Source: Mycobacteriales bacterium (GTDB lineage Bacteria > Actinomycetota > Actinomycetes > JAFAQI01). From it: a DNA stretch of 64,000 nt. Under the pieces are notes generated by a model that saw nothing but the letters and a program-made list of their open reading frames with translations, was not told the origin of the DNA and made no database searches. The translations under genes were made by a program, and so were the position numbers. Shown piece after piece: positions 7,563 to 52,137 of the stretch. Location of the stretch: contig DASZXY010000013.1 in assembly GCA_035545635.1 (NCBI GenBank), positions 184,207 through 248,206 on the forward strand. Direction: 5' to 3'. Each line of letters begins with the position of its first letter. The first letter of the stretch is position 1.

Positions 7563-8399
7563 ATGAGCGACGTACCCAGCATCCAGTTGAACAACGGCCG
7601 CCCGATCCCCCAGCTCGGATTCGGGGTGTTTCTCGTGCCGCCGGAGGAGACCGTGGCCGCGGTCACCGAGGCGTTGCGCGTCGGGTATCGCCACATCGAC
7701 ACCGCGGAGATGTACGGCAACGAGAAGGAAGTCGGTCAGGCGATTGCAGAGTCCGGTCTGCACCGCGACGACGTCTACATCACGAGCAAGCTCAACAACA
7801 GCTTCCACCTGCCCGACGACGCGCGCCGGGCCTTCGACGACACGCTCGCCGCACTCGGCATCGACCAGATCGACCTGTTCCTCATCCACTGGCCGCTGCC
7901 GACCCGGTACGGCGGCGACTTCATCTCGACGTGGAAGACGCTCGAGGAGTTCTACCGCGACGGACGCGCGCGCTCGATCGGCGTGTCGAACTTTCACGCG
8001 AATCATTTGAATCGGCTGTTCGCGGAGACCGAGATCGTTCCGGCGGTCAACCAGATCGAAGTCCATCCATATCTGGTGCAGGACGAGCTGCGGGCGTTCT
8101 GCGCCGACCACCAGATCGCGGTGGAGGCGTGGTCGCCGCTCGGGCGCGGCGCGGTGCTCGACGACCCGACGATTCGCGCGATCGCGAACCGCGTCGGCAA
8201 GACCACCGCACAGGTCGTGTTGCGGTGGGCGATCGAGCGCGGCGACATCATCTTCCCGAAGTCGACGCACCCCGAGCGGATGATCGAGAACTTCGACCTC
8301 TTCGACTTCACTCTCAACCCGGACGACGTCGCAGCGATCTCAGCGCTCAACCGCAACGAACGGGTCGGTCCCGACCCTGAGACGTTTGACCGCGTCTAG
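7563..8399 (+). CDS. Aldo/keto reductase (2,5-diketo-D-gluconate reductase-like)
   Basis: AKR motifs GFGVF...AEMYGNE...IHWP. A complete 278-aa AKR. Confidence 0.9.
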   Translation: MSDVPSIQLNNGRPIPQLGFGVFLVPPEETVAAVTEALRVGYRHIDTAEMYGNEKEVGQAIAESGLHRDDVYITSKLNNSFHLPDDARRAFDDTLAALGIDQIDLFLIHWPLPTRYGGDFISTWKTLEEFYRDGRARSIGVSNFHANHLNRLFAETEIVPAVNQIEVHPYLVQDELRAFCADHQIAVEAWSPLGRGAVLDDPTIRAIANRVGKTTAQVVLRWAIERGDIIFPKSTHPERMIENFDLFDFTLNPDDVAAISALNRNERVGPDPETFDRV

Positions 8400-8404
8400 C
8401 TCAG

Positions 8405-10063
8405 ATGTCGGGGGAAACGTTCGCCGACCTGCTGCTGCGGCGAGAGCACGACAAAGGCACCGCGTTGTGGTGCGAGGACGTCACGTGGTCGTGGGAGTGG
8501 CTGGTCTCGGAGTCCTACGAGCGTGCGCACCTGATGCTCGAGCGAAGGGACCCCGAACGACCGCACGTCGGCGTCCTGCTCGAGAACTCCCCGGAGTACG
8601 TCGCATGGATCTACGGCGCTGCGCTCGCGCGAATGACAGTGGTCGGCATCAACCCGACTCGTCGAGGCGCCGCGCTGCGTGACGACATCCGTCACACCGA
8701 CTGCGGGCTGATCGTCACCGACAGCGAGCGTTTGCCGCTGCTCGCCGATCTCGATCTCGGGATCGCCAGCGAGCGAACTGTGATCGTCGATGACCCGGAC
8801 TACGAGTACGACAGGAGCAGCGCGTGGGCAGGCGAGCTGCCGACCCCGCACCCGGAGGACCGGCTGCTGCTGCTGTTCACGTCTGGTTCGACCGGGGCGC
8901 CGAAAGCGGTCGTGTGCACCACCGGGCGGCTTGCTGCGATCGCTACCGGTGCCACGCAGAGCATCGGGATCAAAGGCGACGACGTGCTGTATCAGTCGAT
9001 GCCGATGTTCCACGGCAACGCGATCATGGCCAATCTCGCGCCCGCCGTCGCCCTCGGAGCACCGGTTGCCCTGCGTCGCCGGTTCTCCGCGTCGCAGTTC
9101 CTCAGCGACGTCCGGAAATACGACGCGACGTACTTCAACTACGTCGGTCGGTCCCTTGCCTACGTTCTGGCGACGCCCGAGCAACCCGATGACGGGCTCA
9201 ACTCGTTGCGGCTCGGTTTCGGCACCGAGGCCTCGCAGCGTGACCGCACCGAGTTCGAGCGTCGCTTCGGCTGTGCGCTGACCGAGTCGTACGGCTCAAG
9301 TGAAGGGGTCATCTCGACGTACCGGCCGCCCGGGACCCCGCCGAACTCGGTCGGCATCCCGCGACCCCGCCCCGGCTCGGATGTCGCAGTCGTGAACCCG
9401 GACACGAGCGAAGAATGCCCCACGGCGGATCTCGACGAAGACGGTCGCCTGATGAACGCCGCCGAGGCGATCGGCGAGATCGTCGACCGCGGTGGCGCAC
9501 CGGGATTCGAGGGCTACTACCGCAACGAGGAGGCGATGGCCTCGCGGCTGCGCGACGGCTGGTACTGGTCCGGCGATCTTGCCTACCGGGACGTCGAGGG
9601 CTACCTGTACTTCGCGGGTCGCAGCAACGACTGGCTGCGCGTCGACTCCGAGAACTTCGCGACGGGTCCCGTCGAGGCGATCCTGTTCCGGCACCCGGAC
9701 GTGATGATGGCCGCCGTCTACGCCACACCGGACCCGCGCACCGGCGACGAGGTCATGTGCGCGCTGGAGCTCAACGACGGTGCCGAGTTCGACGCCGACG
9801 GGTTCGGCAACTTCCTGAATGCCCAGCCGGATCTCGGAACCAAGTGGGCACCGCGATTTGTGCGAATCGTCGACGCGATGCCCCTCACCGCCACCAACAA
9901 GGTCAACAAAGCGCCACTACGGGCAGAGGGCTGGACGACCGGCGACGTGTATTGGCGGCCGTCCGCAGAGCTCAGATACCGGGCCTTCACCGTGGCGGAG
10001 CGCACAGCCCATCGCCAGGCATTCGCACTGCACGAACGCTCCCACCTGCTTCCAGCAATGTGA
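8405..10063 (+). CDS. fadD17: Acyl-CoA synthetase (AMP-binding), FadD17-like
   Basis: AMP-binding motif LLFTSGSTGAPKAV, plus RRFSASQFL, GFEGYY and SGDLAYRD. Strong similarity to FadD17 across the whole length. Confidence 0.85.
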   Translation: MSGETFADLLLRREHDKGTALWCEDVTWSWEWLVSESYERAHLMLERRDPERPHVGVLLENSPEYVAWIYGAALARMTVVGINPTRRGAALRDDIRHTDCGLIVTDSERLPLLADLDLGIASERTVIVDDPDYEYDRSSAWAGELPTPHPEDRLLLLFTSGSTGAPKAVVCTTGRLAAIATGATQSIGIKGDDVLYQSMPMFHGNAIMANLAPAVALGAPVALRRRFSASQFLSDVRKYDATYFNYVGRSLAYVLATPEQPDDGLNSLRLGFGTEASQRDRTEFERRFGCALTESYGSSEGVISTYRPPGTPPNSVGIPRPRPGSDVAVVNPDTSEECPTADLDEDGRLMNAAEAIGEIVDRGGAPGFEGYYRNEEAMASRLRDGWYWSGDLAYRDVEGYLYFAGRSNDWLRVDSENFATGPVEAILFRHPDVMMAAVYATPDPRTGDEVMCALELNDGAEFDADGFGNFLNAQPDLGTKWAPRFVRIVDAMPLTATNKVNKAPLRAEGWTTGDVYWRPSAELRYRAFTVAERTAHRQAFALHERSHLLPAM

Positions 10064-36452: not shown

Positions 36453-37382
36453 GTGCCGATCCCAGACGAGTTCTTCGCACTCGCCAAGGAAGTCAACAAC
36501 TGGGGGCGCTGGGGCGCCGAGGACGAGCGCGGCACCCTCAACCTGATCTCGCCTGGAGCGATCCGCGCCGCAGGCGCCGAAGTCCGTGACGGCAAACGGT
36601 TCTCCCTCGCCATCCCCATGTCGGTCGACGGGCCACAGCTCGGGTTCGTGCCCGGTCGCACCAACCCGACCCGCACGACGATCGCGCATTACGAGCTGTA
36701 CGGCGACGACGAGCGCGGCATTCGCTTCAACGACGACTCCGTGCAGATGGGCGTGCAGGCCGCGACCCATTGGGACGCTCTCGGGCACGCCAGCTACAAC
36801 GGCCGGATCTACAACGGCTTCGACGTCGAGACCATCGACGCGGAGTCGGGTGCGAGCCGGCTCGGCGCCGACAAGCTCGGCGCAATCGTCGGGCGCGGTG
36901 TGCTTCTCGACCTGCCGAAGGCACGTGGGCTCGAACGGCTCGACGGCGGTCATGCGCTGACGCCAGACGATCTGGAAGCGGCCGAGGAGGTCGGCAAGGT
37001 CACCGTCGGTGAGGGCGACATCGTGTTGCTGCGTACCGGCCAGATGCAGCATCTGCATGCCGGCGACAAGATGGCGTACTGCATCTCGACGGCGGGTCCT
37101 TCGACGCAAACCGTGAGGTGGTTCCACTCGCGGGGCGTCGCGGCAGTCGCGACGGACAACCTGTCCTTCGAGGTCTACCCCGGGGAGAACGACGACGTGA
37201 TGTTCCCGGTGCACATGCTTCATCTCGTCGAGATGGGCATGCCGCAAGGACAGAACTTCGACTTGGAGGAGCTGGCGGCCGACTGCGCAGCCGACGGTCG
37301 CTACGCCTTCTTCCTGAGCGCCACGCCCGAGCCGATCGTCGGGGCGACCGGGGCGCCCGTCACGCCGGTAGCAATCAAGTAG
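36453..37382 (+). CDS. Cyclase-family protein (kynurenine-formamidase-like)
   Basis: PF04199-like features (HxGTHxDxPxH-like region, QATHWDALGHASYNGRIYNG). A GTG at 36453 sits 3 nt after the upstream stop. Confidence 0.65.
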   Translation: MPIPDEFFALAKEVNNWGRWGAEDERGTLNLISPGAIRAAGAEVRDGKRFSLAIPMSVDGPQLGFVPGRTNPTRTTIAHYELYGDDERGIRFNDDSVQMGVQAATHWDALGHASYNGRIYNGFDVETIDAESGASRLGADKLGAIVGRGVLLDLPKARGLERLDGGHALTPDDLEAAEEVGKVTVGEGDIVLLRTGQMQHLHAGDKMAYCISTAGPSTQTVRWFHSRGVAAVATDNLSFEVYPGENDDVMFPVHMLHLVEMGMPQGQNFDLEELAADCAADGRYAFFLSATPEPIVGATGAPVTPVAIK

Positions 37383-39795
37383 TGACGGTCAGGCCGGCCT
37401 CATCGTGAGCCGGCTGCCGGGTCCGCGGTAGCTGCATCGGCAGCTTCGTCAGGTGCTCGGGGTCCCGCAGCAGCGCGGTGATCCGGTGCGGGTCGAGCGG
37501 ACGCGCGAAGTAGTAGCCCTGCACCGCGTCGCAGTCCGCGCGTTGCAGCCACTCCGCCTGAGCCGGAGTCTCCACGCCTTCCGCGACCGTGGTGAGGCCG
37601 AGCGACTTTCCGAGCGCGAGGCAGGCCGACACGAGCGAGGTCGACGGCTCGGTGCCGATCCCGGCCACGAACGAGCGGTCGACCTTGATCCGATCGACCG
37701 GGAACCGGGTGAGGTAACCCAGTGACGAGAAGCCGGTGCCGAAGTCGTCGAGCGCGATCGTGATGCCGCACGCACGCAGCCGCCGGAACTGGTCTTCGAT
37801 CTGCTCATCCGACGCCATCAGCACCGTCTCGGTGATCTCGATTCCCAGCGACGTCGGCGGCAGACCGCTCTCGCTGAGAACGCGCTGAACCGTGTCACAG
37901 AACCCTGGGTCGGCGAACTGCCGAGCCGACACGTTCACCCAGACGCGGAACCCGCGGTTCGCGAGATGAACCCACTGCCTGGCGTAGTGGCAGGCGTGGG
38001 CCAGCACTTGCGCGCCAAGCGGGATGATCAGACCGGTGTCTTCGGCAACCGCGAGGAACTCATCTGGGCGCAGCCGCCCGAGCGCCGGGTGGTCCCACCG
38101 CGCCAAGACCTCGACACCCGTGATGCCCCCGGTCCGCAGATCGACGATCGGCTGGTAGGCCGCGCTGATGTCCTTACCGGTGGCGAGCGCGTGTCGCAGC
38201 TCGCGCTCGACGTCGAGGCGGTTCTGTGCCTGCTTGCGAATGTGCGGGCCGAACACGACGACGCGGTCGCGGCCGTCTTCCTTCGCCCGGTACATCGCCG
38301 CGTCCGCGTCGCGGATCAGGGATACCGGGTCACCGCCACCGCGGGTGATCACGACGCCAATGCTGGCGCGGACCGAGTAGTCACGGTCGCCAACGATGAT
38401 CGGCACACCGACAGCGGCGCGGAACCTGTCCGCGAGCGAAATCGCCTCGGCCTCGTCGCCGACCTCGGCGAGGACGGTGAACTCGTCACCGCCGAAGCGT
38501 GCGACGGTGTCGGCAGCACGAGCAGTCGTGAGCAGCCGGCGCGCGGTCTCTGCGAGGACCTCGTCGCCCGTCGAGTGGTCCACACCGTCGTTCACCAGCT
38601 TGAACTGGTCAAGGTCGAGGAACATGACGGCAACGGCCGACGACTGGCGCTTAGCGCGAGCCAGCGCTTCGGACAGCCGGTCGGCGAACAACGAGCGGTT
38701 CGGCAGTCCGGTGAGCGCGTCGTGCGTCGCCTGATGGGACAGCTGGGCCTGCGCCTCGCGCTCACGCTCGAGCAGCTCGCAGCGGTCGATCGCGAGACCG
38801 ACGAACTCGGCGAGACCATTCAGCGCGCGGAACTCGTTGCGCGCGAAGAACGGCAAGTAGGGGTCGCTGCGCACCACAAGCCGGTGCGCGCGGCCAACCG
38901 GCACCTCGAGGGGCACGGTCTCGTCGGCAACCTCACTGGCCGGCCGCTGCTCCGGGACGTCCGACGCCCGGTAACGCGCGACCTCAACGTTGTCGCCGTC
39001 GACGAGCGCGATGTCGGACGCGCCGGTCAGCGCAGCGACATGGGGAAGCAGGCCGGAGGCAACGTCAGCGGCGGAGTAGGCGCTGACCAGGTCGGCGACG
39101 GCAACCCGCATCGCGTTCCGTTCCTTGGTCCGCCACCAAGTCCGGACGGCACCGGGCAGCACCAGACCGAGCCCGAACATCACGGCCATCACGGCGGTGT
39201 TGACCTCGCTCGCGAGCTGCACGTTCGGGTGGTAGCTGAGGCCGAGAGTGCTGAGGATCACCGGTACGTCGAGACCGGCTGCGGCCACCGCGAGGATGCG
39301 CATCCGGTAGCGCGCAGCCTGCGGCTGGTGCGCACCAGCGCGCCACATCCGGACGGCGACGAAGCCGAACAACGAACCCCACTGCAGGGTGATCAGCACG
39401 CGATAGGCGAGGAAGCCGGGAGGCGCGTCCTGACCCGGATATGGCAGATACGGGATGATGAGGGTGCCGGTGACCGCGGCGAGCGTCAGCCACGCCGCAA
39501 GGTGGCGCGCCCAGTTCCGGACCGGCGCAAAGCTGGCCGCGAACCGGTACAGCGCATAAGGCACGAGCAGCACCGAGCACAGGAGCGACTTGATCAGCCC
39601 GCTCGGCAGCATGAGGAGGCCGGCTTCCTGAACCACCAGGCTGGTGACGCTGATCGCGGCGAGCAAACCGAATGATCCAGCCGCCCAGCCGGCACCTCGG
39701 GCGCCGTACCGGCGCCACTGCCAGACCGACAGCGCGAAGAGCGCGACGAACTCGGCAGTGACGAAGTCGGTGAGAGTCCGCTGGAAGGTAGTCAC
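37375..39795 (-). CDS. Membrane sensor diguanylate cyclase/phosphodiesterase (GGDEF-EAL)
   Basis: N-terminal polytopic membrane domain, then GGDEF (RFGGDEFTVL) and EAL (EVLARW, QPIVDL) domains. 806 aa. Confidence 0.9.
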   Translation of the reverse strand: MTTFQRTLTDFVTAEFVALFALSVWQWRRYGARGAGWAAGSFGLLAAISVTSLVVQEAGLLMLPSGLIKSLLCSVLLVPYALYRFAASFAPVRNWARHLAAWLTLAAVTGTLIIPYLPYPGQDAPPGFLAYRVLITLQWGSLFGFVAVRMWRAGAHQPQAARYRMRILAVAAAGLDVPVILSTLGLSYHPNVQLASEVNTAVMAVMFGLGLVLPGAVRTWWRTKERNAMRVAVADLVSAYSAADVASGLLPHVAALTGASDIALVDGDNVEVARYRASDVPEQRPASEVADETVPLEVPVGRAHRLVVRSDPYLPFFARNEFRALNGLAEFVGLAIDRCELLEREREAQAQLSHQATHDALTGLPNRSLFADRLSEALARAKRQSSAVAVMFLDLDQFKLVNDGVDHSTGDEVLAETARRLLTTARAADTVARFGGDEFTVLAEVGDEAEAISLADRFRAAVGVPIIVGDRDYSVRASIGVVITRGGGDPVSLIRDADAAMYRAKEDGRDRVVVFGPHIRKQAQNRLDVERELRHALATGKDISAAYQPIVDLRTGGITGVEVLARWDHPALGRLRPDEFLAVAEDTGLIIPLGAQVLAHACHYARQWVHLANRGFRVWVNVSARQFADPGFCDTVQRVLSESGLPPTSLGIEITETVLMASDEQIEDQFRRLRACGITIALDDFGTGFSSLGYLTRFPVDRIKVDRSFVAGIGTEPSTSLVSACLALGKSLGLTTVAEGVETPAQAEWLQRADCDAVQGYYFARPLDPHRITALLRDPEHLTKLPMQLPRTRQPAHDEAGLTVTT

Positions 39796-43868: not shown

Positions 43869-46064
43869 TTGCCCTGGTCGGGTGCCCTCGCAGTGCCGCT
43901 GGCCCCCTCCGCTCACGCCGGCCGGCCGCGGCAGCTCCGCATCGAGGTGCTCTCGACCCGGGCCGACCTGGTGTCGGGGCAGGTCGCCGTCGTGGCGGTC
44001 GATCTCCCCGCGGGCGTGAAGCCGTCGTCGGTCCGGGTGCGCCTCGGTCACCGCGACATCACACGGGAGTTCGCCGTACGCCCGAACCACCGGTTCGCCG
44101 CACTCGTCCACGGGCTGAACACCGGACGCAACGTCGTCGTCGCGACCGCCCGCGGCGCCCGCGGCGCGCGGCTGACGATCACGGACCATCCGCTGGGCGG
44201 ACCCGTCTTCGCCGGGCCACAGCTCCCCGCCTGGCAGTGCGAGGCAGGCGCAGTCGACGCGAAGTGCGACAAGCCCGCGGCGTTCAGCTATCTCTACCGC
44301 TCCTCGGACCCGACGAAGGCGGGGCTTCAGCCGTACAACCTCAACCATCCGGCGTCGGACGTCGCGATGACGACTACGGACACGGGTGTCACCGTCCCGT
44401 TCATCGTGCGCAAGGAGATCGACTACCAGGACCGCGACCAGGTCATCTACATGACGCTGTTCCAGCCCGGGAAGCGCTGGAGTCGCTGGTCGCCGCAACC
44501 GCAGTTCGCCCACAAGCTGCTGATCACGCACGGTGGCGGTTGCGGTGCCTCCCACGGCTCGGGCAACGCGCCGACTGATGACTTCAGCGGCACGATCCCG
44601 ACGGTGCCCGGAGTCACGCAGAGCTACATCACCGCTCTCGGCAAGGGCTTCGGCGTGATGTCGACCGCGCTCGACAACAACGGGCACAACTGCAACGGCG
44701 TGCTCCAGGCCGAGTCGCTGGTCATGGCGAAAGAGCACTTCATCGACCAGTACGGCGACGTCCGCTACACGATCGGCACCGGCTGCTCAGGTGGCTCGAT
44801 CGCACAACAGCAGGTCGCCAATTCCTACCCCGGCGGCGTCTACAACGGCCTCATCGTCACGTGCGCCTACCCCGACGACTTCTCGACAGCGGCGGAGTTC
44901 GTCGACTACCACCTGTTGCGCCTCTACTTCGAGGATCCGTCGAAGTGGGGTGCCGGCATCGCATGGACACCCTTGCAATGGTCGTTGGTCGAAGGCCGCC
45001 CCGACCCCGTCAACGCGATCGTCGCTGACGAGGCGTTCCTCAAGAGCGCCATCAACCCAGGCGGCGACTGCGCGGGCAAGCGCACCTACAACGCGAAGAC
45101 CAATCCGAAGGGCGTGCGGTGCTCGGTGATCGATGCCGCGATCAACGTCCTCGGTCCACGGCCGAAGCAGGACTGGACCAGACAGGAGAAGGCCGCCGGC
45201 CATGGGTTCGCGGGGATCCCGCTCGGCAACGTCGGCGTCATGTACGGCCTCAGCGCCCTCGAGGATGGCCTGATCACGGCCGACCAGTTCATCGATCTGA
45301 ACGCCAAGATCGGCGGGCTGAACATCGATGGCGGCTGGCGCCACGCGCGCATCCCCGGCGATCGCAGATCGCTCCGCGCCGCCTACCGCTCGGGCCTCAT
45401 CAACGAGGCCAACAACATGGGCAATGTCGCGATCATCGACGCCGCGGGACCGGATCCAGGTGTCGCGCACGACTACGTCCACACGTGGTGGATGCGCGAC
45501 CGCATCGAGCGCGCGCTGGGCGGGCTCGGCAACCACGTGCTCTGGTACGGCCCGGTGCCGCTGGTCGGCGACGTCAACTGGATGAACGTGGCGCTGAACC
45601 GGATGGACAGCTGGCTCGCGGACATCGCCGGCGACCACTCCTCACGGTCCGTAGCGCAGAAGGTTCTTGCCGACCGGCCGGCCAATGTGCACGACCGTTG
45701 TGAGTACGCACCCGACGAGACTTCACAGCTCGACACCGCGCCGACCGACGGCGTCTGCCTGCCGCCCATCACCCAGACGCGCTACCAGACGCCGCGGATC
45801 GTCGCGGGCAGCGACGAGGCCAGCGACATCGTCGCGTGCTCGCTCAAGCCGTTGCTTCGCTACCAGTACCCCAACGGGCTGTTCACCGATGCCCAGTGGC
45901 AGAAGCTGCAAGCCATCTTCCCGCACGGTGTGTGCAACTGGTCGGCACGCGGGATCGGGCAGCAAGACACGATCCCGTGGCAGACCTATCAGGATGCGAA
46001 GGGGCATGTCATCTACGGCGGCCGGCCGCTCGGCCCGGCGCCGGTGTCCGCCCCGATCGACTAG
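43869..46064 (+). CDS. Secreted large alpha/beta-hydrolase, tannase/feruloyl-esterase-like (DUF6351-like)
   Basis: 731 aa with a GCSGGS nucleophile motif and many Cys pairs. See the finding on the split signal peptide at the 5' end. Confidence 0.65.
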   Translation: MPWSGALAVPLAPSAHAGRPRQLRIEVLSTRADLVSGQVAVVAVDLPAGVKPSSVRVRLGHRDITREFAVRPNHRFAALVHGLNTGRNVVVATARGARGARLTITDHPLGGPVFAGPQLPAWQCEAGAVDAKCDKPAAFSYLYRSSDPTKAGLQPYNLNHPASDVAMTTTDTGVTVPFIVRKEIDYQDRDQVIYMTLFQPGKRWSRWSPQPQFAHKLLITHGGGCGASHGSGNAPTDDFSGTIPTVPGVTQSYITALGKGFGVMSTALDNNGHNCNGVLQAESLVMAKEHFIDQYGDVRYTIGTGCSGGSIAQQQVANSYPGGVYNGLIVTCAYPDDFSTAAEFVDYHLLRLYFEDPSKWGAGIAWTPLQWSLVEGRPDPVNAIVADEAFLKSAINPGGDCAGKRTYNAKTNPKGVRCSVIDAAINVLGPRPKQDWTRQEKAAGHGFAGIPLGNVGVMYGLSALEDGLITADQFIDLNAKIGGLNIDGGWRHARIPGDRRSLRAAYRSGLINEANNMGNVAIIDAAGPDPGVAHDYVHTWWMRDRIERALGGLGNHVLWYGPVPLVGDVNWMNVALNRMDSWLADIAGDHSSRSVAQKVLADRPANVHDRCEYAPDETSQLDTAPTDGVCLPPITQTRYQTPRIVAGSDEASDIVACSLKPLLRYQYPNGLFTDAQWQKLQAIFPHGVCNWSARGIGQQDTIPWQTYQDAKGHVIYGGRPLGPAPVSAPID

Positions 46065-47827
46065 ACGCCGAGCAGCTTCCAGCTCAGCAACACCGCGGTG
46101 GACGCGGCGGTCAGTAACGTCGCCACCGCGGCTGAACCGCCGCTCCGCCAGGTCACCACCGCGAGCGCGCCAGAACACGTGGCATGCCCATCAGAAAGCT
46201 TCGCGTTGGCGATCACATGGCGCACGATCACCGCGCTGGTAGCCAGCAGGTACGTGGCCGACTGCACCAACAGCAGGATCGTCAGGCCCATCGTCCATTG
46301 CGGGTGCGCGGCGACCGCGATCACCACAGCCGGCGCCAAAGCAAGGACCAGCAGCGGTGAGAGCAGCTTCACGGACAGCGGTCGAATGTCGGTCAGCCCC
46401 TTGGGTGTGACCCGGAACGGCTTCGGCATCGGCTTGCGGCCGGCCCACATCCCTTGGAAGAACCCCCACGTCGTCCATGGCCAGCGAACCAGCTGGAACA
46501 GCACCAGGTCCGTCGACCACAGCTTGGCCTGCACCGGGCGCATCACGCCACACCGACGCAGCCACGCCAGAGTGCCCATCAAGAACATCGACGGCACCCA
46601 GAGGCGAAGGTAGAACTCCAGAAAGCTGGTGTTGCCCCAGGCTGTCGCGGTCAGAACACCGATCGCCGGCAGGCTGACCGCGGCGAGGCAGATCAGTCCC
46701 TGAACGAGATAGAAGAACAGCGCGAAGCCCATGCGTGCGCGTGCCTTGGCAGGCACGGTGCGGAACTTCCGCGGCGCCCACTTCGTGAGGATCGTGCCGA
46801 GGCTCCGCGACCACTGCAGCTCCTGCGTGATCATGTCGTCGAAGGTCTCCGGTCCGTCGCCGTGAGCCTCTGCATCGATGGCGAAGGCGCCCGCCCAGCC
46901 CGCCGACTGCAGCCACAACGTGGTCGCGTAGTCCTCTGCGAGCTCAGGTCCAAGACCTCCTACATCGCGCAATGCCGCCGTACGAACCGCGTAGTGAGAC
47001 CCGATGCAAAGCGGCGCCCAGCCGCCATTCGAGCCCGCCTGCACAGCTCCGTGCAGCGATGCCTCCCGGTGCAGCCTGCCTTTGACCGTCCAGCCCTTGT
47101 GCTCGTTCGCGTCGCAGACACTCGGCGCCGCGACATAGCCGACAGCAGGATCAGCAAACGGTCGAACCATCTCGGTGAGATAGCTCGGCGCCGGCACATG
47201 ATCGGCGTCCAGTTGCGCGACGACGTCGTAGCGCGTGTAGCCGTACTTGTCGTAGAAGTAGGCGAGGTTGCCTTCCTTGCTCTTGGTACGTCGCGGCCAG
47301 ACCGGCTGGTGGTAGTCCGCAATCCCGGCCCGCGTCGAGATGTGGACGCCGTTGAGCCGGCACCACTCGAGGGCTTCTTCGCTCGGCTGCTCGTCAGCCA
47401 GCCAGACGTCATACGCGTAAGGCAGGTCCTGCGTGAGCATCGCGCGGAGGGTCTGGACCACCATCGCCCACGGCTCGGAGGGTGCCTTCGTCACCACGAT
47501 CGCCACCCGAAGATCCGGCAACGGCAACCGCGGATTCGGGCGCTTCATCCGGCAGGCGAAGAACAGAAAGTACGCACCGAGCAGGAACAACCACGCCAGG
47601 CCGACGGTGCCGAGGGATCGGCCATAGCCCCACGGGCCTCGCGCGGGCGCAAGCCACCACAACCAGAACATGGCGGCTCCGCCGGCCCATGCCGTCACCA
47701 ACAGGCGAAGAACGACCTCCTGGTGGACGCTGAGAATGGGCACCAGGTATCGCGCGCGGCGATGTCTCCCCCTCTGAACGCGAGTGAGCGGTAGACGAGC
47801 GGTCGTCGCCGGCTCCGCAAAGATCAC
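46061..47827 (-). CDS. Polytopic family-2 glycosyltransferase (cellulose-synthase/NodC-like processive synthase), copy 1
   Basis: Two N-terminal TM helices, a cytoplasmic GT-A domain (DAD, DADH, GPELAEDY, QELQWSRS, which is QxxRW-like) and 4-5 C-terminal TM helices. Confidence 0.85.
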   Translation of the reverse strand: MIFAEPATTARLPLTRVQRGRHRRARYLVPILSVHQEVVLRLLVTAWAGGAAMFWLWWLAPARGPWGYGRSLGTVGLAWLFLLGAYFLFFACRMKRPNPRLPLPDLRVAIVVTKAPSEPWAMVVQTLRAMLTQDLPYAYDVWLADEQPSEEALEWCRLNGVHISTRAGIADYHQPVWPRRTKSKEGNLAYFYDKYGYTRYDVVAQLDADHVPAPSYLTEMVRPFADPAVGYVAAPSVCDANEHKGWTVKGRLHREASLHGAVQAGSNGGWAPLCIGSHYAVRTAALRDVGGLGPELAEDYATTLWLQSAGWAGAFAIDAEAHGDGPETFDDMITQELQWSRSLGTILTKWAPRKFRTVPAKARARMGFALFFYLVQGLICLAAVSLPAIGVLTATAWGNTSFLEFYLRLWVPSMFLMGTLAWLRRCGVMRPVQAKLWSTDLVLFQLVRWPWTTWGFFQGMWAGRKPMPKPFRVTPKGLTDIRPLSVKLLSPLLVLALAPAVVIAVAAHPQWTMGLTILLLVQSATYLLATSAVIVRHVIANAKLSDGHATCSGALAVVTWRSGGSAAVATLLTAASTAVLLSWKLLGV

Positions 47828-47865: not shown

Positions 47866-48078
47866 TCAGGACGAGTCACCGTCCGACACGCGCGCGATCA
47901 CCCCGAGCATCAGAATTCCAGTGATCAGAAGCACCAGACCGAGCGCGACCAGCTCCATCAGGTGGCTGGCGCCCGTGTAGGGCAGCGCCTTGATGGCGGA
48001 AGCGCCCTTCACTCCCGAACCTGTGCCGACCAGAGCGCCGACAACGGCGGCACCACCAGTACCGGCTGAAACGCTCAT
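47866..48078 (-). CDS. 70-aa small membrane peptide with an LPYTG motif, copy 1
   Basis: MSVSAGTGGAAVVGALVGTGSGVKGASAIKALPYTGASHLMELVALGLVLLITGILMLGVIARVSDGDSS. ATG at 48078 with an AAGGGAAAG RBS. 38 bp upstream of, and co-oriented with, GT2 copy 1. A paralog lies at 51925..52137. Confidence 0.55.
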   Translation of the reverse strand: MSVSAGTGGAAVVGALVGTGSGVKGASAIKALPYTGASHLMELVALGLVLLITGILMLGVIARVSDGDSS

Positions 48079-48308: not shown

Positions 48309-50060
48309 GTGGCGCGCCGTTGGTTGTTGGCAGCGACAGCGGCGCTGTTCGCACTCCAGCTGCCGACGCCGGCTAGCGCATCCGCACCCCCGCCCGGGGT
48401 CGCGACGATCGTCACCGCCTCGATGCATCCGAGCACCGTCAAGGCGGGCGGATCCACCACCGTCTTCGCGAACGTCAGCGGTGCCTTCAACCGCAAGGTT
48501 CGGCTGCAGGTCAGCCGCGATGGCACCTGGCAGACCCTGCTCAAGGGTCGGCTGACGAAGAAGTCGTCGTCGTACGCATTTCGGCTTCACGACCTGCCCG
48601 TCGGCGCCTACACCCTCCGGGTCTGGGTGCCGATCGACCCCGGCTACGCCTTCAGCCAGTCACTCGAGCTGAGAGTCGAGTCCGTGCTCCCATCCACCAA
48701 CGCCGTGACGGACGGCGCATGGACAGGGACGCAGATTCCGTTGCCGAGGGACGCCGACGTCGATTCGAAGCCCTACGTCGGCCCGACCGCATGCACGACG
48801 ACCGGCGTCTGCATCGCGACGGCCAACTACGTGACGAGGTCCGGCGCGTCCGCAACTTCCATTGACGCGACGATTGGTGGGGCGTGGTTCCCGACCGAGA
48901 TCCCACGCATGCACCTCGAGGGCGCCGCATGTACGGACGTCGGCTGTGTGGTCGTCGGCGACAGCTCTGCCACAGCGGGCGCGACAACGCCGTACGCCGA
49001 AGTGCTCAACAACGGGACCTGGACAGGTCACGAGCTCCCCCTTCCTCCCGACGGCGTGCCGAGCATCTGGACCGTTCTGAGCCGGGTCGCCTGCCAACCG
49101 GGCGGGACGTGCATCGCAACCGGCGGGTACTACGACAAGAACGACGTGCAGCTTCCGCTCATCGAAACGTTGAGCCTCGGCGGGTGGGCGGCTAACGCGA
49201 CTGCTGCACCCCTGCCAGACGACGCGGGTGAGGAGCCCGGCAATCGAGAGTGGCGAGGTGGCAAAGGTCCGGGGCTGAGCGGTGGGGTCGCGTGCCCGAC
49301 CAATGGCTACTGCGTCGCAGTCGGCTACTACCACGACACGGCGGGGTCCTACCAAGGGCTGATCGAGACGCTCTCCGATGGCAAGTGGACGGCGGCGAGG
49401 GCGCCGCTTCCACCGATTGCCGGCAACCCGACGCCACGGGACTCCTACGAAGATGCCGACCCCATCTACTACGGACTCGCCTGCTACGCGGCTGAACACT
49501 GCGCCGCAGCCGGCACCGACGAAGTTGCCGGTGGGCAAGGAATGGTCCTCACCCTCGACGGAGGATCATGGGCAGCTGAGACCGTGTACCCGAATCAGGC
49601 GTTGCCGTCAGTTGGCGGCCTGGGAGGGGTGACGTGCAGCCCTGACGGGACCTGCCTGGCGGGCGGTAGCGCCTATTGGTCGGACGGCAGCATGGACGGA
49701 ATCATCGACTCCTACGGCAAGGGCGCGTGGACCGTCGGTAAGGTGGCAGCCCCATCCGACGTGTCCCCCAAGGCCCGAGGTGTCGCTGGACTCGGCGTGG
49801 TCGCGTGCACCGTCGTCGACACCTGCGTCGCGGCGGGCAGCTACCGGGACGTCAACCTCAACTCGTCAGGGGTCCTCGCGACCCGCGTGCTCGGGACCTG
49901 GACGGCGCTCAAGGCTCCGGTGCCACTCGGCGCCGCACTGAACCCGAACACCGCGTTCGTCTCCGCCAGCTGCGGATTGACGCTGTGTGTCGCGGATGGC
50001 ATCTACACCGATCACTTGGGCAACGTGCAAGGTCTGCTCGAGACGTTCGCCGCCGGCTGA
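48309..50060 (+). CDS. Secreted protein built of eight ~43-aa Cys-pair repeats
   Basis: Signal peptide MARRWLLAATAALFALQLPTPASA. Repeats of the form [VL]ACxxxGxCxAxGxYxD...GL[IL]ETxSxGxWTAxxAPLP. No known domain. Confidence 0.7.
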   Translation: MARRWLLAATAALFALQLPTPASASAPPPGVATIVTASMHPSTVKAGGSTTVFANVSGAFNRKVRLQVSRDGTWQTLLKGRLTKKSSSYAFRLHDLPVGAYTLRVWVPIDPGYAFSQSLELRVESVLPSTNAVTDGAWTGTQIPLPRDADVDSKPYVGPTACTTTGVCIATANYVTRSGASATSIDATIGGAWFPTEIPRMHLEGAACTDVGCVVVGDSSATAGATTPYAEVLNNGTWTGHELPLPPDGVPSIWTVLSRVACQPGGTCIATGGYYDKNDVQLPLIETLSLGGWAANATAAPLPDDAGEEPGNREWRGGKGPGLSGGVACPTNGYCVAVGYYHDTAGSYQGLIETLSDGKWTAARAPLPPIAGNPTPRDSYEDADPIYYGLACYAAEHCAAAGTDEVAGGQGMVLTLDGGSWAAETVYPNQALPSVGGLGGVTCSPDGTCLAGGSAYWSDGSMDGIIDSYGKGAWTVGKVAAPSDVSPKARGVAGLGVVACTVVDTCVAAGSYRDVNLNSSGVLATRVLGTWTALKAPVPLGAALNPNTAFVSASCGLTLCVADGIYTDHLGNVQGLLETFAAG

Positions 50061-50114: not shown

Positions 50115-51914
50115 TCAGAAGGCGCCTAGCAACTTCCCGCTCAACAGCGACGCGGCGCACAGAACAGTCGCCAGCGTTGCGGCTACCGCAGAGCCTCCGG
50201 CTTCCCACGTCACCAAGGTAGTCGTAGCGGCTTCGTCCGGATGCTGGCGTCTTCGATTCGCGTTCGCGGCTACGTGACGCACGATCACCGCACAGGACGC
50301 GAGGAGATAGGTGAGCGCCTGCGCGAGCAAGAGGATCGTCAGGCCTATGGTCCGGTCGGGATGAGGGGCGATCGCAATCACTACTACGGGTGCGAAGCAA
50401 AGAACCAGCAGCGGCGAGAAGAACTTCAGCGACAACGGCCGGATGTCCGTCAGGCCTTTTGGCGTGACCCGAAACGGCTTCGGGGCGGACCTGCGACCGG
50501 CCCACATTCCCTGGAAGAAGCCCCAGGTGGTCCAAGGCCAGCGCACGAGCTGAAAGAGCACGAGATCGGTCGACCACAGCTTGGCCCGGACTGGACGCAG
50601 CACGCCGCAGTGCCGAAGCCACGCCAAGGTGCTCATGAGCAACAGCGAAGGCAGCGAGAGGCGGATGTAGAACTCGAGGATGCTCGTGTTGACCCATGTG
50701 ACGCCGGTGAGCACGCCAAGGGACGGCAGGCTGATCGCCGCGAGACACACCAAACCTTGGACCAGGTAGAAGAAGAGCGCAAAGCTCATCCGCGCCCGCG
50801 CCCTGCGAGGGACCGTGCGGAACTTCGACGGCGCCCATCTGGTGAAGATCGTTCCCAGGCTGCGCGACCACTGCAGCTCCTGGGTGATCATGTCGTCGAA
50901 GGTCTCGGGCCCATCGCCGTGAGCTTCGGCGTCGATGGCGAAGGCACCCGACCATCCCGCGGACTGCAGCCACAACGTTGTCGTGTAGTCCTCGGCGAGC
51001 TCCGGCCCGAGCCCGCCCACCTCACGCAACGCCGACGTACGAACCGCGTAGTGAGATCCGATGCAGAGTGGCGCCCAACCCCCGTTCGAACCAGCCTGCA
51101 CCACGCCGTGCAACGACGCCTCGCGATGCAGCCGGCCTCTCACGGTCCAGCCCTTGTCCTCGTTCGCATCGCACACGCTGGGCGCTGCGACGTAGCCGAT
51201 GCCCGCGTCCGCAAACGGCCGCACCATCTCCATGAGATAGCCAGGTGCGGGCACATGGTCCGCGTCCAGCTGGGCCACCACGTCGTAGGAGTCGTAGCCG
51301 TGACGGTCGTAGAAGTACGCGAGGTTGCCCTCCTTGCTCTTCGTACGTCGGGGCCAGACCGGCTGGTGGTATTCAGGAGCCCGCGCCCGCGTGGAGACGC
51401 GGACACCGTGGCGTCGGCACCACTGTCGCGCTGTCCGGGTGGGCTGCTCATCGGCCAGCCAGACGTCGTAGGCGAAGGGCACCTCCTGCGCGACCATGCC
51501 TCGCAAGGTCTCGCGAACCATCGGCCACGGCTCCGAGGGCGCCTTCGTCACGACCATTGCGACGCGTAGCGGGGGAACTGTCAGTTGAGGATTCGGCCGC
51601 TTGATGCGACAGGCGAAGAAGACGAAGTACGCACCGAGCAAAAAGATCCAACCTAGACCTGCGGTCGAGGCGACGCGACCGACACTCCACCGCCCGCGAG
51701 CCGGCGCGAACCACCACAGCCAGAACAGGGCGCCGCTGCTGACCCACGCCAGCACCAACAGGCGGAGGACGGCCTCCTGATGGACGGTGAGAACAGGTAC
51801 GAGGTGTTGCGGGCGCTCACCGCGCTTCGACCCACGAACGACGGCACGGTCCGGCCTCGCATGACCGCGGATGCCCGCAGCGGAGAAGCCGGATCGGACG
51901 GATCCGATCATCAT
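50115..51914 (-). CDS. Polytopic family-2 glycosyltransferase, copy 2
   Basis: Paralog of 46061..47827 with the same motifs. I take the start at MMIGSV to avoid overlapping the small upstream gene. Confidence 0.85.
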   Translation of the reverse strand: MMIGSVRSGFSAAGIRGHARPDRAVVRGSKRGERPQHLVPVLTVHQEAVLRLLVLAWVSSGALFWLWWFAPARGRWSVGRVASTAGLGWIFLLGAYFVFFACRIKRPNPQLTVPPLRVAMVVTKAPSEPWPMVRETLRGMVAQEVPFAYDVWLADEQPTRTARQWCRRHGVRVSTRARAPEYHQPVWPRRTKSKEGNLAYFYDRHGYDSYDVVAQLDADHVPAPGYLMEMVRPFADAGIGYVAAPSVCDANEDKGWTVRGRLHREASLHGVVQAGSNGGWAPLCIGSHYAVRTSALREVGGLGPELAEDYTTTLWLQSAGWSGAFAIDAEAHGDGPETFDDMITQELQWSRSLGTIFTRWAPSKFRTVPRRARARMSFALFFYLVQGLVCLAAISLPSLGVLTGVTWVNTSILEFYIRLSLPSLLLMSTLAWLRHCGVLRPVRAKLWSTDLVLFQLVRWPWTTWGFFQGMWAGRRSAPKPFRVTPKGLTDIRPLSLKFFSPLLVLCFAPVVVIAIAPHPDRTIGLTILLLAQALTYLLASCAVIVRHVAANANRRRQHPDEAATTTLVTWEAGGSAVAATLATVLCAASLLSGKLLGAF

Positions 51915-51924
51915 CGAGCCGTCG

Positions 51925-52137
51925 TTAGTGCGAGTCGCCGTCTGACAGACGCCGGAAGAAGCCGACCATGAGGACACCGGCGATCAGCAGCACGAAGCCG
52001 ATGGCAACCAGAACCATCAAGTGGCTCGCACCCGTGTAAGGCAGGGACTTCAGCGCGGGCGCACCCTTGGCACCGGCTGCTGCGCCGACCACCGCGCCGG
52101 CGACACTGGCGCCTCCGGTGCCGGCTGAAACGCTCAT
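51925..52137 (-). CDS. 70-aa small membrane peptide with an LPYTG motif, copy 2
   Basis: MSVSAGTGGASVAGAVVGAAAGAKGAPALKSLPYTGASHLMVLVAIGFVLLIAGVLMVGFFRRLSDGDSH. GAAGG RBS. Directly upstream of GT2 copy 2. Confidence 0.55.
   Translation of the reverse strand: MSVSAGTGGASVAGAVVGAAAGAKGAPALKSLPYTGASHLMVLVAIGFVLLIAGVLMVGFFRRLSDGDSH

Follow-up and report, generated by a model that had tools for sequence, protein, structure and literature searches.

The 64,000-nucleotide stretch of DNA from a Mycobacteriales bacterium that was analysed here (the window) carries on its forward strand, at positions 48309..50060 (stop codon included), a gene whose translation in the list of open reading frames (ORFs) is a protein of 583 residues, hereafter the target. 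This protein would be secreted and is predicted to consist of an Ig-like domain followed by an eight-bladed beta-propeller stapled by pairs of cysteines. The ORF starts with a GTG codon, with a GAGGGGG ribosome-binding site five nucleotides upstream, and its product is 100% identical to an NCBI protein annotated as hypothetical, VHD81_07330, which is encoded on a 382-kb contig of a metagenome-assembled genome from Mycobacteriales. The GC content of the window is 0.64-0.70 and that of the propeller gene matches its surroundings. Scanning for a promoter and a terminator around the gene revealed nothing, and the 64-kb window holds no second propeller gene. Judged from profile searches, the target is not an orphan but a divergent member of a very large, unnamed and mostly actinobacterial family. 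As a secreted beta-propeller the protein itself would be an ordinary kind of object; the notable part is the family behind it.

The N-terminus, read by eye and with a hydrophobicity scan, makes secretion through the Sec pathway probable. Residues 1-24 (MARRWLLAATAALFALQLPTPASA, followed by SA; 48309..48380, forward strand) form a probable signal peptide, the hydrophobic core of which spans residues 5-16 and which lacks a lipobox cysteine. Residues ~30-125 (48396..48683, forward strand) probably form an Ig-like beta-sandwich spacer domain: Big_7 matches weakly over residues 36-105 (E 0.011; 16.7 bits, below the 24.1-bit Pfam cutoff), and the full-length AlphaFold2 (AF2) model places beta strands in this region, but with a predicted local distance difference test score (pLDDT) below 50. 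He_PIG, Big, TIG or fn3 domains adjoin the propeller in relatives. At the other end, the C-terminus (...GLLETFAAG) shows none of the signs of sortase anchoring, namely an LPXTG motif, a transmembrane (TM) segment and a basic tail. Hence, with LPXTG, C-terminal TM segment and lipobox all missing, no anchor was found on the protein.

All 16 cysteines of the target sit in eight C-x4-5-C pairs, one per repeat unit. When 16 cysteines were placed randomly in 583 residues, 100,000 trials never gave more than six such pairs. The spacing between pairs equals the repeat period, which ranges from 46 to 67 residues with a mean of 56. Furthermore, a hidden Markov model (HMM) of the repeat (57 positions, consensus ALNGVACPAAGSCVAVGSYTDSSGASQGLIETLSGGTWTAAEAPLPAGAAASKQEKE), built from 250 units of homologues with the target left out, matches the target eight times with independent E-values (iE) of 6e-6 to 3e-26. 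It also gives a partial match close to the N-terminus (residues 134-154) that involves only its C-terminal third (positions 34-54), and the last repeat unit of the target ends at position 36 of the model. Together, the partial match and the truncated last unit suggest that the propeller is closed like 'velcro', blade 8 being completed by a strand from near the N-terminus. Pairwise identity among the units is 19-50%, with a mean of 31%. A preliminary description of this locus had already recognised eight repeats with a cysteine pair in each, which these results confirm. The repeat length of about 43 residues that it gave was too short, and its CxxxGxC pattern fits four of the eight units, the general rule being C-x4-5-C. 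Likewise, the core that it proposed, GL(I/L)ET...WTA...PLP, holds in part, the LIET, WT and PLP motifs being readily recognised in units 3, 4, 7 and 8 but degenerate in the others. Finally, it took the whole protein to be composed of the eight repeats, whereas residues 1-130 are non-repeat and correspond to the signal peptide and the probable Ig-like domain.

Two AF2 models were computed, one of the full-length protein from an alignment of 46 sequences and one of the propeller domain only (residues 132-583) from 54 sequences. In the former, residues 134-583 reach a pLDDT of ~85-95, whereas the N-terminal third is of low confidence. The latter is one compact domain with a mean pLDDT of 87.3 and a predicted template modelling score (pTM) of 0.89. 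It contains 31 clear strands that make up eight four-stranded blades, strand 4 of blade 8 being provided by the N-terminal strand. From DSSP assignments, pLDDT and pTM, we infer a closed propeller of four-stranded antiparallel blades. In blades 1-3 of the model, strand 1 ends with the first cysteine of the pair and strand 2 begins with the second; in the remaining blades, both cysteines lie within ~2 residues of the turn between these strands. This placement makes a disulfide clamp on each inner hairpin geometrically plausible, and the modelled positions suggest that there is probably one disulfide per blade. Actinomycetota oxidise exported proteins via DsbA/MdbA-VKOR systems.

Foldseek searches of the Protein Data Bank (PDB) with the model returned beta-propellers only, at 8-16% identity, with template modelling scores of at most 0.55 when normalised by the query and up to ~0.54 when normalised by the matched structure. 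The best match is CylK. Many of the others are sialidases of glycoside hydrolase (GH) family 33, Vps10 domains of sortilin and SorCS2, a GH74 xyloglucanase and the glycoside hydrolase BT3686; additional matches include the glycoside hydrolase BACINT_00347, Kelch proteins, acylaminoacyl peptidase and WD40 proteins. The predicted fold is therefore a propeller without close solved relative. The alternative of a 'beta-propeller-like or solenoid' extracellular domain left by the preliminary description is thus narrowed: both the propeller and the extracytoplasmic location are retained, whereas a solenoid is ruled out by both AF2 models. The structure prediction and Foldseek search that it proposed as a check did predict a repeat architecture, that of an eight-bladed propeller.

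The features of the propeller, all on the forward strand, are as follows. The 'velcro' strand (residues 134-146, DGAWTGTQIPLP; 48708..48746), which corresponds to HMM positions 34-54, is modelled as strand 4 of blade 8, with a strand at residues 137-142 and a pLDDT of ~90. Blade 1 (residues 157-202; 48777..48914; iE 6.9e-9) has four modelled strands, Cys162 ending strand 1 and Cys168 starting strand 2. Blade 2 (residues 203-256; 48915..49076; iE 3.9e-13), also with four modelled strands, carries Cys208/Cys213 in a C-x4-C spacing. The pair Cys262/Cys268 belongs to blade 3 (residues 257-322; 49077..49274; iE 3.3e-17), which is extended by a long 4-to-1 loop of low pLDDT (residues ~305-321). Blade 4 (residues 323-386; 49275..49466; Cys329/Cys335), which reads CPTNGYCVAVGYYHDTAGSYQGLIETLSDGKWTAARAPLP, is the unit closest to the family consensus (iE 2.7e-26). 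Blade 5 (residues 387-437; 49467..49619; Cys392/Cys398; iE 4.9e-10) is the sole unit whose 3-4 hairpin (TLDGGSW) fits a short form of the Asp-box, a motif discussed below. Blades 6 (residues 438-494; 49620..49790; Cys443/Cys449; iE 3.7e-10) and 7 (residues 495-549; 49791..49955; Cys500/Cys506; iE 7.7e-16) each have four modelled strands. Blade 8 (residues 550-583; 49956..50057; Cys555/Cys560; iE 5.6e-6) provides three modelled strands only, strands 1-3, its strand 4 coming from the N-terminal strand.

No curated model accounts for this protein. In Pfam and NCBIfam, no model covers the repeats of the target, and no Pfam model covers the repeat in ~90 relatives. The Pfam models of the WD40, Kelch, NHL, PQQ, RCC1, YWTD, FG-GAP, TolB/PD40, SBBP and Reg_prop repeats do not match the target at E<=10. 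Moreover, the family profile found nothing among PDB sequences at E<=10. The statement of the preliminary description that the domain could not be assigned to a known family therefore stands. Matches to RCC1, Reg_prop and SGL were obtained in relatives and correspond to separate extra domains in single proteins only. Other weak Pfam matches in the repeat region (DUF2510, DUF6087, CBM_56, Erg28) were treated as partial or spurious matches to short conserved hairpins. DUF6087 and DUF2510 gave short partial matches inside the units of five relatives (P0049, P0058, P0081, P0095 and P0129), the DUF6087 match on P0129 reaching 40 bits without a single qualifying stretch. These two models may be fragments of the Cys-propeller repeat.

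The size of the family is considerable. A profile search of 1.84 billion representatives retrieved 34,042 clusters at 50% identity with E<=1e-3, 23,624 with E<=1e-10 and 11,944 with E<=1e-30. Members near the target have mostly seven units and some have eight. Among the strongest profile matches, 14-16 units are the usual number, suggestive of two propellers, and one protein reaches 30. Many relatives stop, as the target does, right after the strand-3 (LIET) motif. The framework of the family can be written (V/A)xC-x4-5-C-(V/I)A(V/A)G-x-Y ... L(I/L)ETLS-G-x-W-T ... P-L-P, with the C-terminus after strand 3 and an N-terminal velcro strand. All cysteine columns are invariant in the alignment of 46 sequences and nearly so in that of 54. 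The target has the cysteine pair in eight of eight units and the eight HMM matches plus the N-terminal partial one, as expected of a Cys-stapled family member, and deviates from the consensus at several framework positions. It is also isolated: among 5.8 billion proteins, its best non-self match is 33-38% identical and none exceeds 38%. A tblastn search of plasmids with the target propeller gave no match.

Relatives bear names such as 'zinc ribbon domain-containing protein', 'serine/threonine-protein kinase' (Trebonia sp.), 'IPT/TIG domain-containing protein' (Acidimicrobiales) or 'hypothetical'. Such annotations derive from partner domains, and the named organisms are all Actinomycetota. The partner domains found in relatives are Pkinase, an N-terminal Zn_ribbon, He_PIG, Big, TIG, fn3, SGNH, CHAP, CE2_N, cutinase and alpha/beta-hydrolase. 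In the kinase fusions, a single TM helix lies between the cytoplasmic Hanks kinase and the propeller (13 of 13). One of these fusions, P0030, is encoded between groES/groEL and two IMPDH (guaB-like) genes (locus L004, 8001-10418), a housekeeping neighbourhood unlike the mobile contexts of stand-alone members.

A single protein connects this family to the Asp-box propellers, i.e. those with the BNR/sialidase fold. The Asp-box, as defined by Quistgaard and Thirup (PMC2716378), has the consensus X-X-(S/t)-X-(D/n)-X-G-X-(T/s)-(W/f/y); its place is invariably between strands 3 and 4 of the blade and its role is structural, the ligand-binding or catalytic residues being located on the opposite, variable face of the propeller. 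A tblastn search of plasmids with a typical family member, P0005, gave one match (E 9e-8, 87% coverage), WP_125466284.1, a 'sialidase family protein' encoded by the conjugative plasmid pLLO-F1157CHC of Legionella longbeachae (locus L011, 2296-4392; NZ_CP020895.2, 32942-35038); the same query had no match in phages. This protein contains eight near-identical repeats of ~56 residues, reading LQSASCSGATCIAAGYYSTGSGSYPLLARSADSGATWTYAIDSSTPALP, that combine the cysteine pair, the AAGYY strand and the P-x-L-P tail with a canonical Asp-box (S-A-D-S-G-A-T-W). It passes the Pfam BNR_2 cutoff (40.1 bits versus 31.4 bits) and also has a weak CyRPA match. Against this protein, the repeat HMM gives eight matches in register, and two residues are inserted relative to the model, exactly at the Asp-box. 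In addition, hhalign aligned it with a target-headed profile (A3) at 99.2% probability (E 2e-19) over 373 columns, in register across the blades. Its gene adjoins a porin gene and is an isolated gammaproteobacterial instance of a repeat type that is otherwise actinobacterial.

WP_125466284.1 has a signal peptide, as the target probably does, and shares with it N-terminal non-repeat domains and eight ~56-residue repeats in which the cysteine pair (CSGATC) is found along with the AAGYY strand, a GxTW hairpin and the P-x-L-P tail. Unlike the target, it comes from a gammaproteobacterial conjugative plasmid, is BNR_2-positive and carries the full SADSGATW in each of its blades, which are almost identical to each other. 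None of the eight blades of the target has a canonical Asp-box, and one (TLDGGSW) fits the short pattern. In the family, the full motif was found in 3 of ~2,769 units (217 proteins). The equivalent hairpin of the target, (S/D/N/G)-G-x-W, is in the right position, between strands 3 and 4, and is two residues shorter than in WP_125466284.1. The BNR models PF02012 and PF13088 do not match the target even at E<=10, and they are not among the 25 most-matched families in two scanned sets of 46 and 43 relatives. Nevertheless, the target shares with the Asp-box propellers (PF02012/PF13088; GH33, GH74, Vps10/sortilin) a closed propeller of four-stranded blades and a 3-4 hairpin that ends with an aromatic residue; these propellers are mostly extracytoplasmic, and the Foldseek matches of the target are enriched for them. 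It differs from them by the C-x4-5-C pair at the 1-2 hairpin of each blade and by unusually regular blades, Asp-box propellers being described as irregular (PMC2716378). On the basis of these alignments, the most fitting description of the family is that of a Cys-stapled branch of the Asp-box propeller lineage in which the Asp-box has degenerated. The family is homologous to this lineage and yet fails both its defining motif and its curated models.

The propeller gene lies, as the preliminary description stated, exactly between two cassettes that each encode a small peptide and a family-2 glycosyltransferase (GT2). On its upstream side, it diverges across a 230-bp intergenic region from the gene of a 70-residue mini LPXTG-type peptide (47866..48078, reverse strand; LPYTG, TM segment, R). 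The peptide gene is accompanied by that of GT2-1 (46061..47827, reverse strand), a multi-TM enzyme of the processive type with Pfam matches to Glyco_trans_2_3 and Glyco_transf_21 and a weak CelA-like match. On its downstream side, the propeller gene is convergent with that of GT2-2 (50115..51977, reverse strand), the two stop codons being 54 nucleotides apart. The true start of GT2-2 is probably near 51914 (MMIGS...), since its longest ORF overlaps the second 70-residue peptide (51925..52137, reverse strand), which passes the TIGR01167 LPXTG_anchor cutoff (23.1 bits versus 15.9 bits). The two units are paralogous, with GT2-1 and GT2-2 75% identical and both multi-TM, processive in type and weakly CelA-like, and the peptides read MSVSAGTGGA...LPYTG, then a TM segment and R...SDGD. 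Convergent with the GT2-1 gene, with a 4-bp overlap, is a gene for a 731-residue secreted, tannase-like DUF6351 protein (43869..46064, forward strand; Pfam DUF6351, E 1.3e-191), which thus has the same position relative to GT2-1 as the propeller gene has relative to GT2-2. An origin of the propeller gene by tandem duplication of the 4.06-kb unit was considered and rejected: the cassettes are paralogous (75%), but no propeller homologue is found at the equivalent offset.

The 70-residue peptides are Gly/Ala-rich, have no obvious N-terminal signal peptide and end with LP(Y/F)TG, a TM segment and a basic tail. The pair made of peptide and GT2 also occurs, conserved and in one copy each, in three related loci of Mycobacteriales (L005, ~7650-9704; L006, ~330-2368; L012, ~330-2352). 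The peptide could be an acceptor or an anchor for a wall-linked glycan; no sortase TLxTC motif was found in the 64-kb window. Another gene of the window, ~8.5 kb upstream of the propeller gene (37375..39795, reverse strand), encodes an 806-residue multi-TM GGDEF-EAL protein. A PAS-GGDEF-EAL protein is likewise encoded 1.6 kb from the gene of the homologue P0014 (L008, 3989-6454, reverse strand), which is possibly a coincidence.

The preliminary description also proposed that the propeller was a partner of the GT2 cassette and named, as grounds for abandoning this idea, homologs that never occur with it. This is what we found in the loci sampled: a GT2 gene is nearby in none of seven homologue loci, Legionella locus included, and a Cys-propeller unit is present in no frame of 12 loci from genomes and metagenomes that encode GT2 homologues. 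The latter include the three closest loci (74-77% identity), which keep the mini-LPXTG peptide. These samples (7 + 12 loci) are small and several of the contigs are short. In the three closest loci, a gene for a secreted right-handed beta-helix protein of ~420 residues (Pfam Beta_helix) is convergent with the 3' end of the GT2 gene and lies within ~14 bp of its stop codon (L005, 9711-10964; L006, 2382-3641; L012, 2355-3620; all on the reverse strand). Since the similarity between L005 and L006 is limited to the peptide, GT2 and beta-helix genes, these constitute a three-gene module in otherwise different surroundings. No beta-helix homologue is encoded in the window.

More distant GT2 homologues (46-47% identity) in L014 (4114-7569), L015 (4036-7488) and L018 (5812-8997) are part of a single ORF of ~1060-1150 residues with a C-terminal extension, which matches GH26 in L014, the only one of the three scanned against Pfam. 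In these three loci, the GT2 ORF is followed by an ORF that resembles UDP-glucose dehydrogenase in its sequence. In Streptomyces solicamelliae (L007, 6083-12213), the flanking neighbours of a GT2 with 49% identity are an NAD-dependent epimerase and a UDP-glucose dehydrogenase, the latter confirmed by Pfam. UDP-glucose dehydrogenases in such neighbourhoods hint at a polymer containing uronic acid. As the secreted beta-helix protein occupies the equivalent convergent position in the closest cassettes, the propeller may have a local, glycan-related role. That the propeller binds or handles the product of the GT2 is a local hypothesis without conservation support, to which we give limited credence. 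Peptide and GT2 might even be a module with an interchangeable third extracellular component (beta-helix, fused GH26-like domain, DUF6351 protein or propeller), a broader proposal that we regard as rather doubtful.

The explanation that we favor, and consider somewhat more probable than improbable, is that the target is a secreted, non-catalytic ligand-binding propeller. According to this explanation, the protein would be exported by Sec and would be soluble or held only loosely at the cell wall. Its eight-bladed propeller would follow a short Ig-like spacer, and the N-terminal strand would close the ring by joining blade 8. In each blade, the strand 1-2 hairpin would be clamped by the C-x4-5-C disulfide and the strand 3-4 hairpin, (S/D/N)-G-x-W, would be a shortened remnant of the Asp-box. 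If Asp-box propellers are taken as a guide, variable loops (the 2-3 loops and the long 4-to-1 connections) on the face opposite to these two conserved hairpins would bind the ligand, and the part of the disulfides would be to stabilise the fold in the extracellular environment. We infer the non-catalytic binding from the distribution of conserved positions, and the binding face from the comparison with Asp-box propellers. All columns conserved at 70% or more belong to the per-blade framework (C, G, W, P, A, L, Y and the E/T/S of ETLS). Among the 54 family sequences, no polar or acidic residue is conserved in one particular blade, and an RIP motif (R-[IVL]-P) is missing. This confinement of conservation to the framework argues against a conserved asymmetric active site. 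The catalytic set of GH33 sialidases (RIP motif/Arg triad, Tyr-Glu pair, Asp acid/base) was likewise not recognised in the target sequence. The variable parts of the target are its 2-3 loops and above all its 4-to-1 connections (7 to 25 residues).

The domain partners of the family (kinases, zinc ribbons, stalks, esterase-type domains) also correspond to the usage pattern of an extracellular recognition module. The module found as ectodomain of single-pass Ser/Thr kinases and of zinc-ribbon membrane proteins suggests a signal input, and the module found as head on Ig/fn3/TIG stalks or attached to esterases suggests targeting. As for the ligand, our leading, albeit tentative, guess is a glycan of the cell envelope, which might be what the flanking GT2 synthases produce. 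Several points weigh against a secreted binding protein of this kind. The RR at the N-terminus could mean export by the twin-arginine (Tat) system rather than by Sec, and the target is so divergent (<=38% identity) that arguments made at the level of the family may not transfer to it. Furthermore, most characterised Asp-box propellers are glycosidases (PMC2716378), and the local context fits an enzyme too, with a beta-helix protein in the same position and a GH26-like domain fused to distant GT2s.

These last points lead to another explanation, in which the propeller would be a sialidase-fold enzyme (a glycoside hydrolase, a lyase or similar) that trims or releases the polysaccharide made by the flanking GT2s and thereby fills the role of the secreted beta-helix protein or fused GH26-like domain of related cassettes. 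It is consistent with the conserved module of peptide, GT2 and beta-helix in L005, L006 and L012, with the GT2 fused to a C-terminal extension in L014, L015 and L018 (GH26 in L014), and with a window in which the propeller, rather than a beta-helix homologue, occupies the equivalent position. The glycosidase activity of so many Asp-box propellers and the glycoside hydrolases among the Foldseek matches (GH33, GH74, BT3686, BACINT_00347) also agree with it. However, the 54 members conserve no polar or acidic residue beyond the framework and no RIP motif, and the target has no GH or BNR match in Pfam or NCBIfam. Moreover, the family mainly serves as kinase ectodomain or stalk head, convergent genes are not co-transcribed and the pairing of propeller and GT2 occurs nowhere else in 19 loci. 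We therefore consider an enzyme unlikely.

We regard as decidedly unlikely that the target is a fast-diversifying recognition protein (a decoy, a phage or epibiont receptor, or an adhesin) that was acquired with mobile DNA and is unrelated to the GT2 genes. The lack of an orthologue (33-38% identity with the best non-self match) and a family as extremely diverse as this one (34,042 clusters at 50% identity) would fit such a protein. So would the genes for integrases, transposases, resolvases or conjugation found within 6-8 kb, or the conjugative plasmid, in five of the seven homologue loci, although five of seven is a raw count. The loci concerned are L001, L002, L009 and L010, with TrwB/TraG and transposases, a resolvase, a phage integrase with rve, or a DDE transposase, and L011, the conjugative plasmid. 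In oral Actinobacteria, a surface beta-propeller has also been reported to sense threats (bioRxiv 10.64898/2026.09.08.750141), though it is of the WD40 class. This epibiont sensor was rejected as an equivalent of the target and is an analogy only, being a WD40-class protein in a MoxR/vWA-linked system. By contrast, no mobile-element gene was found among the genes examined between 37.4 and 56.6 kb of the window, the segment from 56.6 to 60.6 kb being read only as ORF translations. The GC content of the propeller gene matches that of its surroundings, the search of phages with P0005 gave no match and no MoxR/vWA or other conflict-system genes are nearby. Lastly, it is very improbable that the target has a structural role only, as a scaffold or S-layer-like component of the envelope or matrix with no specific ligand: the fold would be secreted, disulfide-rich and stable, and family members are often tandem double propellers or long multi-domain surface proteins, but the target lacks an anchor (LPXTG, C-terminal TM segment or lipobox), its loops are variable, as expected for recognition, and a module that serves as kinase ectodomain implies signalling that depends on a ligand.

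What is new here is a propeller of the Asp-box lineage that is putatively stapled by a disulfide in every blade, has eight regular blades and a decayed Asp-box, and belongs to a very large family with no curated model. With a model of this family and a first ligand, annotation could be given to tens of thousands of envelope proteins now called 'hypothetical'. Both would also help to tell what actinobacterial Ser/Thr kinases with this ectodomain sense. For the present locus, the idea of the propeller as a dedicated partner of the GT2 cassette is tempered. If, on the other hand, the propeller is one of several interchangeable components, no other member of the family would have been seen before it in the service of binding or processing an exopolysaccharide linked to the wall, and the whole family, including the kinase ectodomains, would then have its first candidate ligand class.

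Known extracellular propellers provide precedents for such a module. [quoted passage not shown] It is eukaryotic and six-bladed, and resembles the target by having a disulfide per blade, not by the position of this disulfide. No sequence similarity between CyRPA and the target was detected, the only CyRPA match being the weak one on the Legionella protein. In plants, the ectodomain of CRINKLY4 (ACR4/PpCR4) has one conserved disulfide per blade, which was read as an extracellular adaptation, and a putative ligand groove (bioRxiv 10.1101/2020.08.10.245050). As a single-pass receptor kinase with a propeller ectodomain, CRINKLY4 works like the kinase-fused relatives of the target. It differs from the target by its seven WD40/RCC1-like blades and its pore-filling N-terminal strand, and the likeness, given that no PDB sequence matches the family at E<=10, is convergent rather than homologous. 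Hence, PfCyRPA and CRINKLY4 are both precedents for one disulfide per blade in non-enzymatic extracellular propellers. Among Actinomycetota, PknD of Mycobacterium tuberculosis, which Good and co-workers are said to have described in 2004, reportedly combines a Hanks kinase, one TM helix and an extracellular NHL beta-propeller that serves as sensor domain. Its propeller is said to consist of six NHL-repeat blades with no per-blade disulfide, and no NHL match was found by Pfam in the target or in the scanned family members. The target itself is without kinase; the architecture of PknD is that of its 13 kinase-fused relatives.

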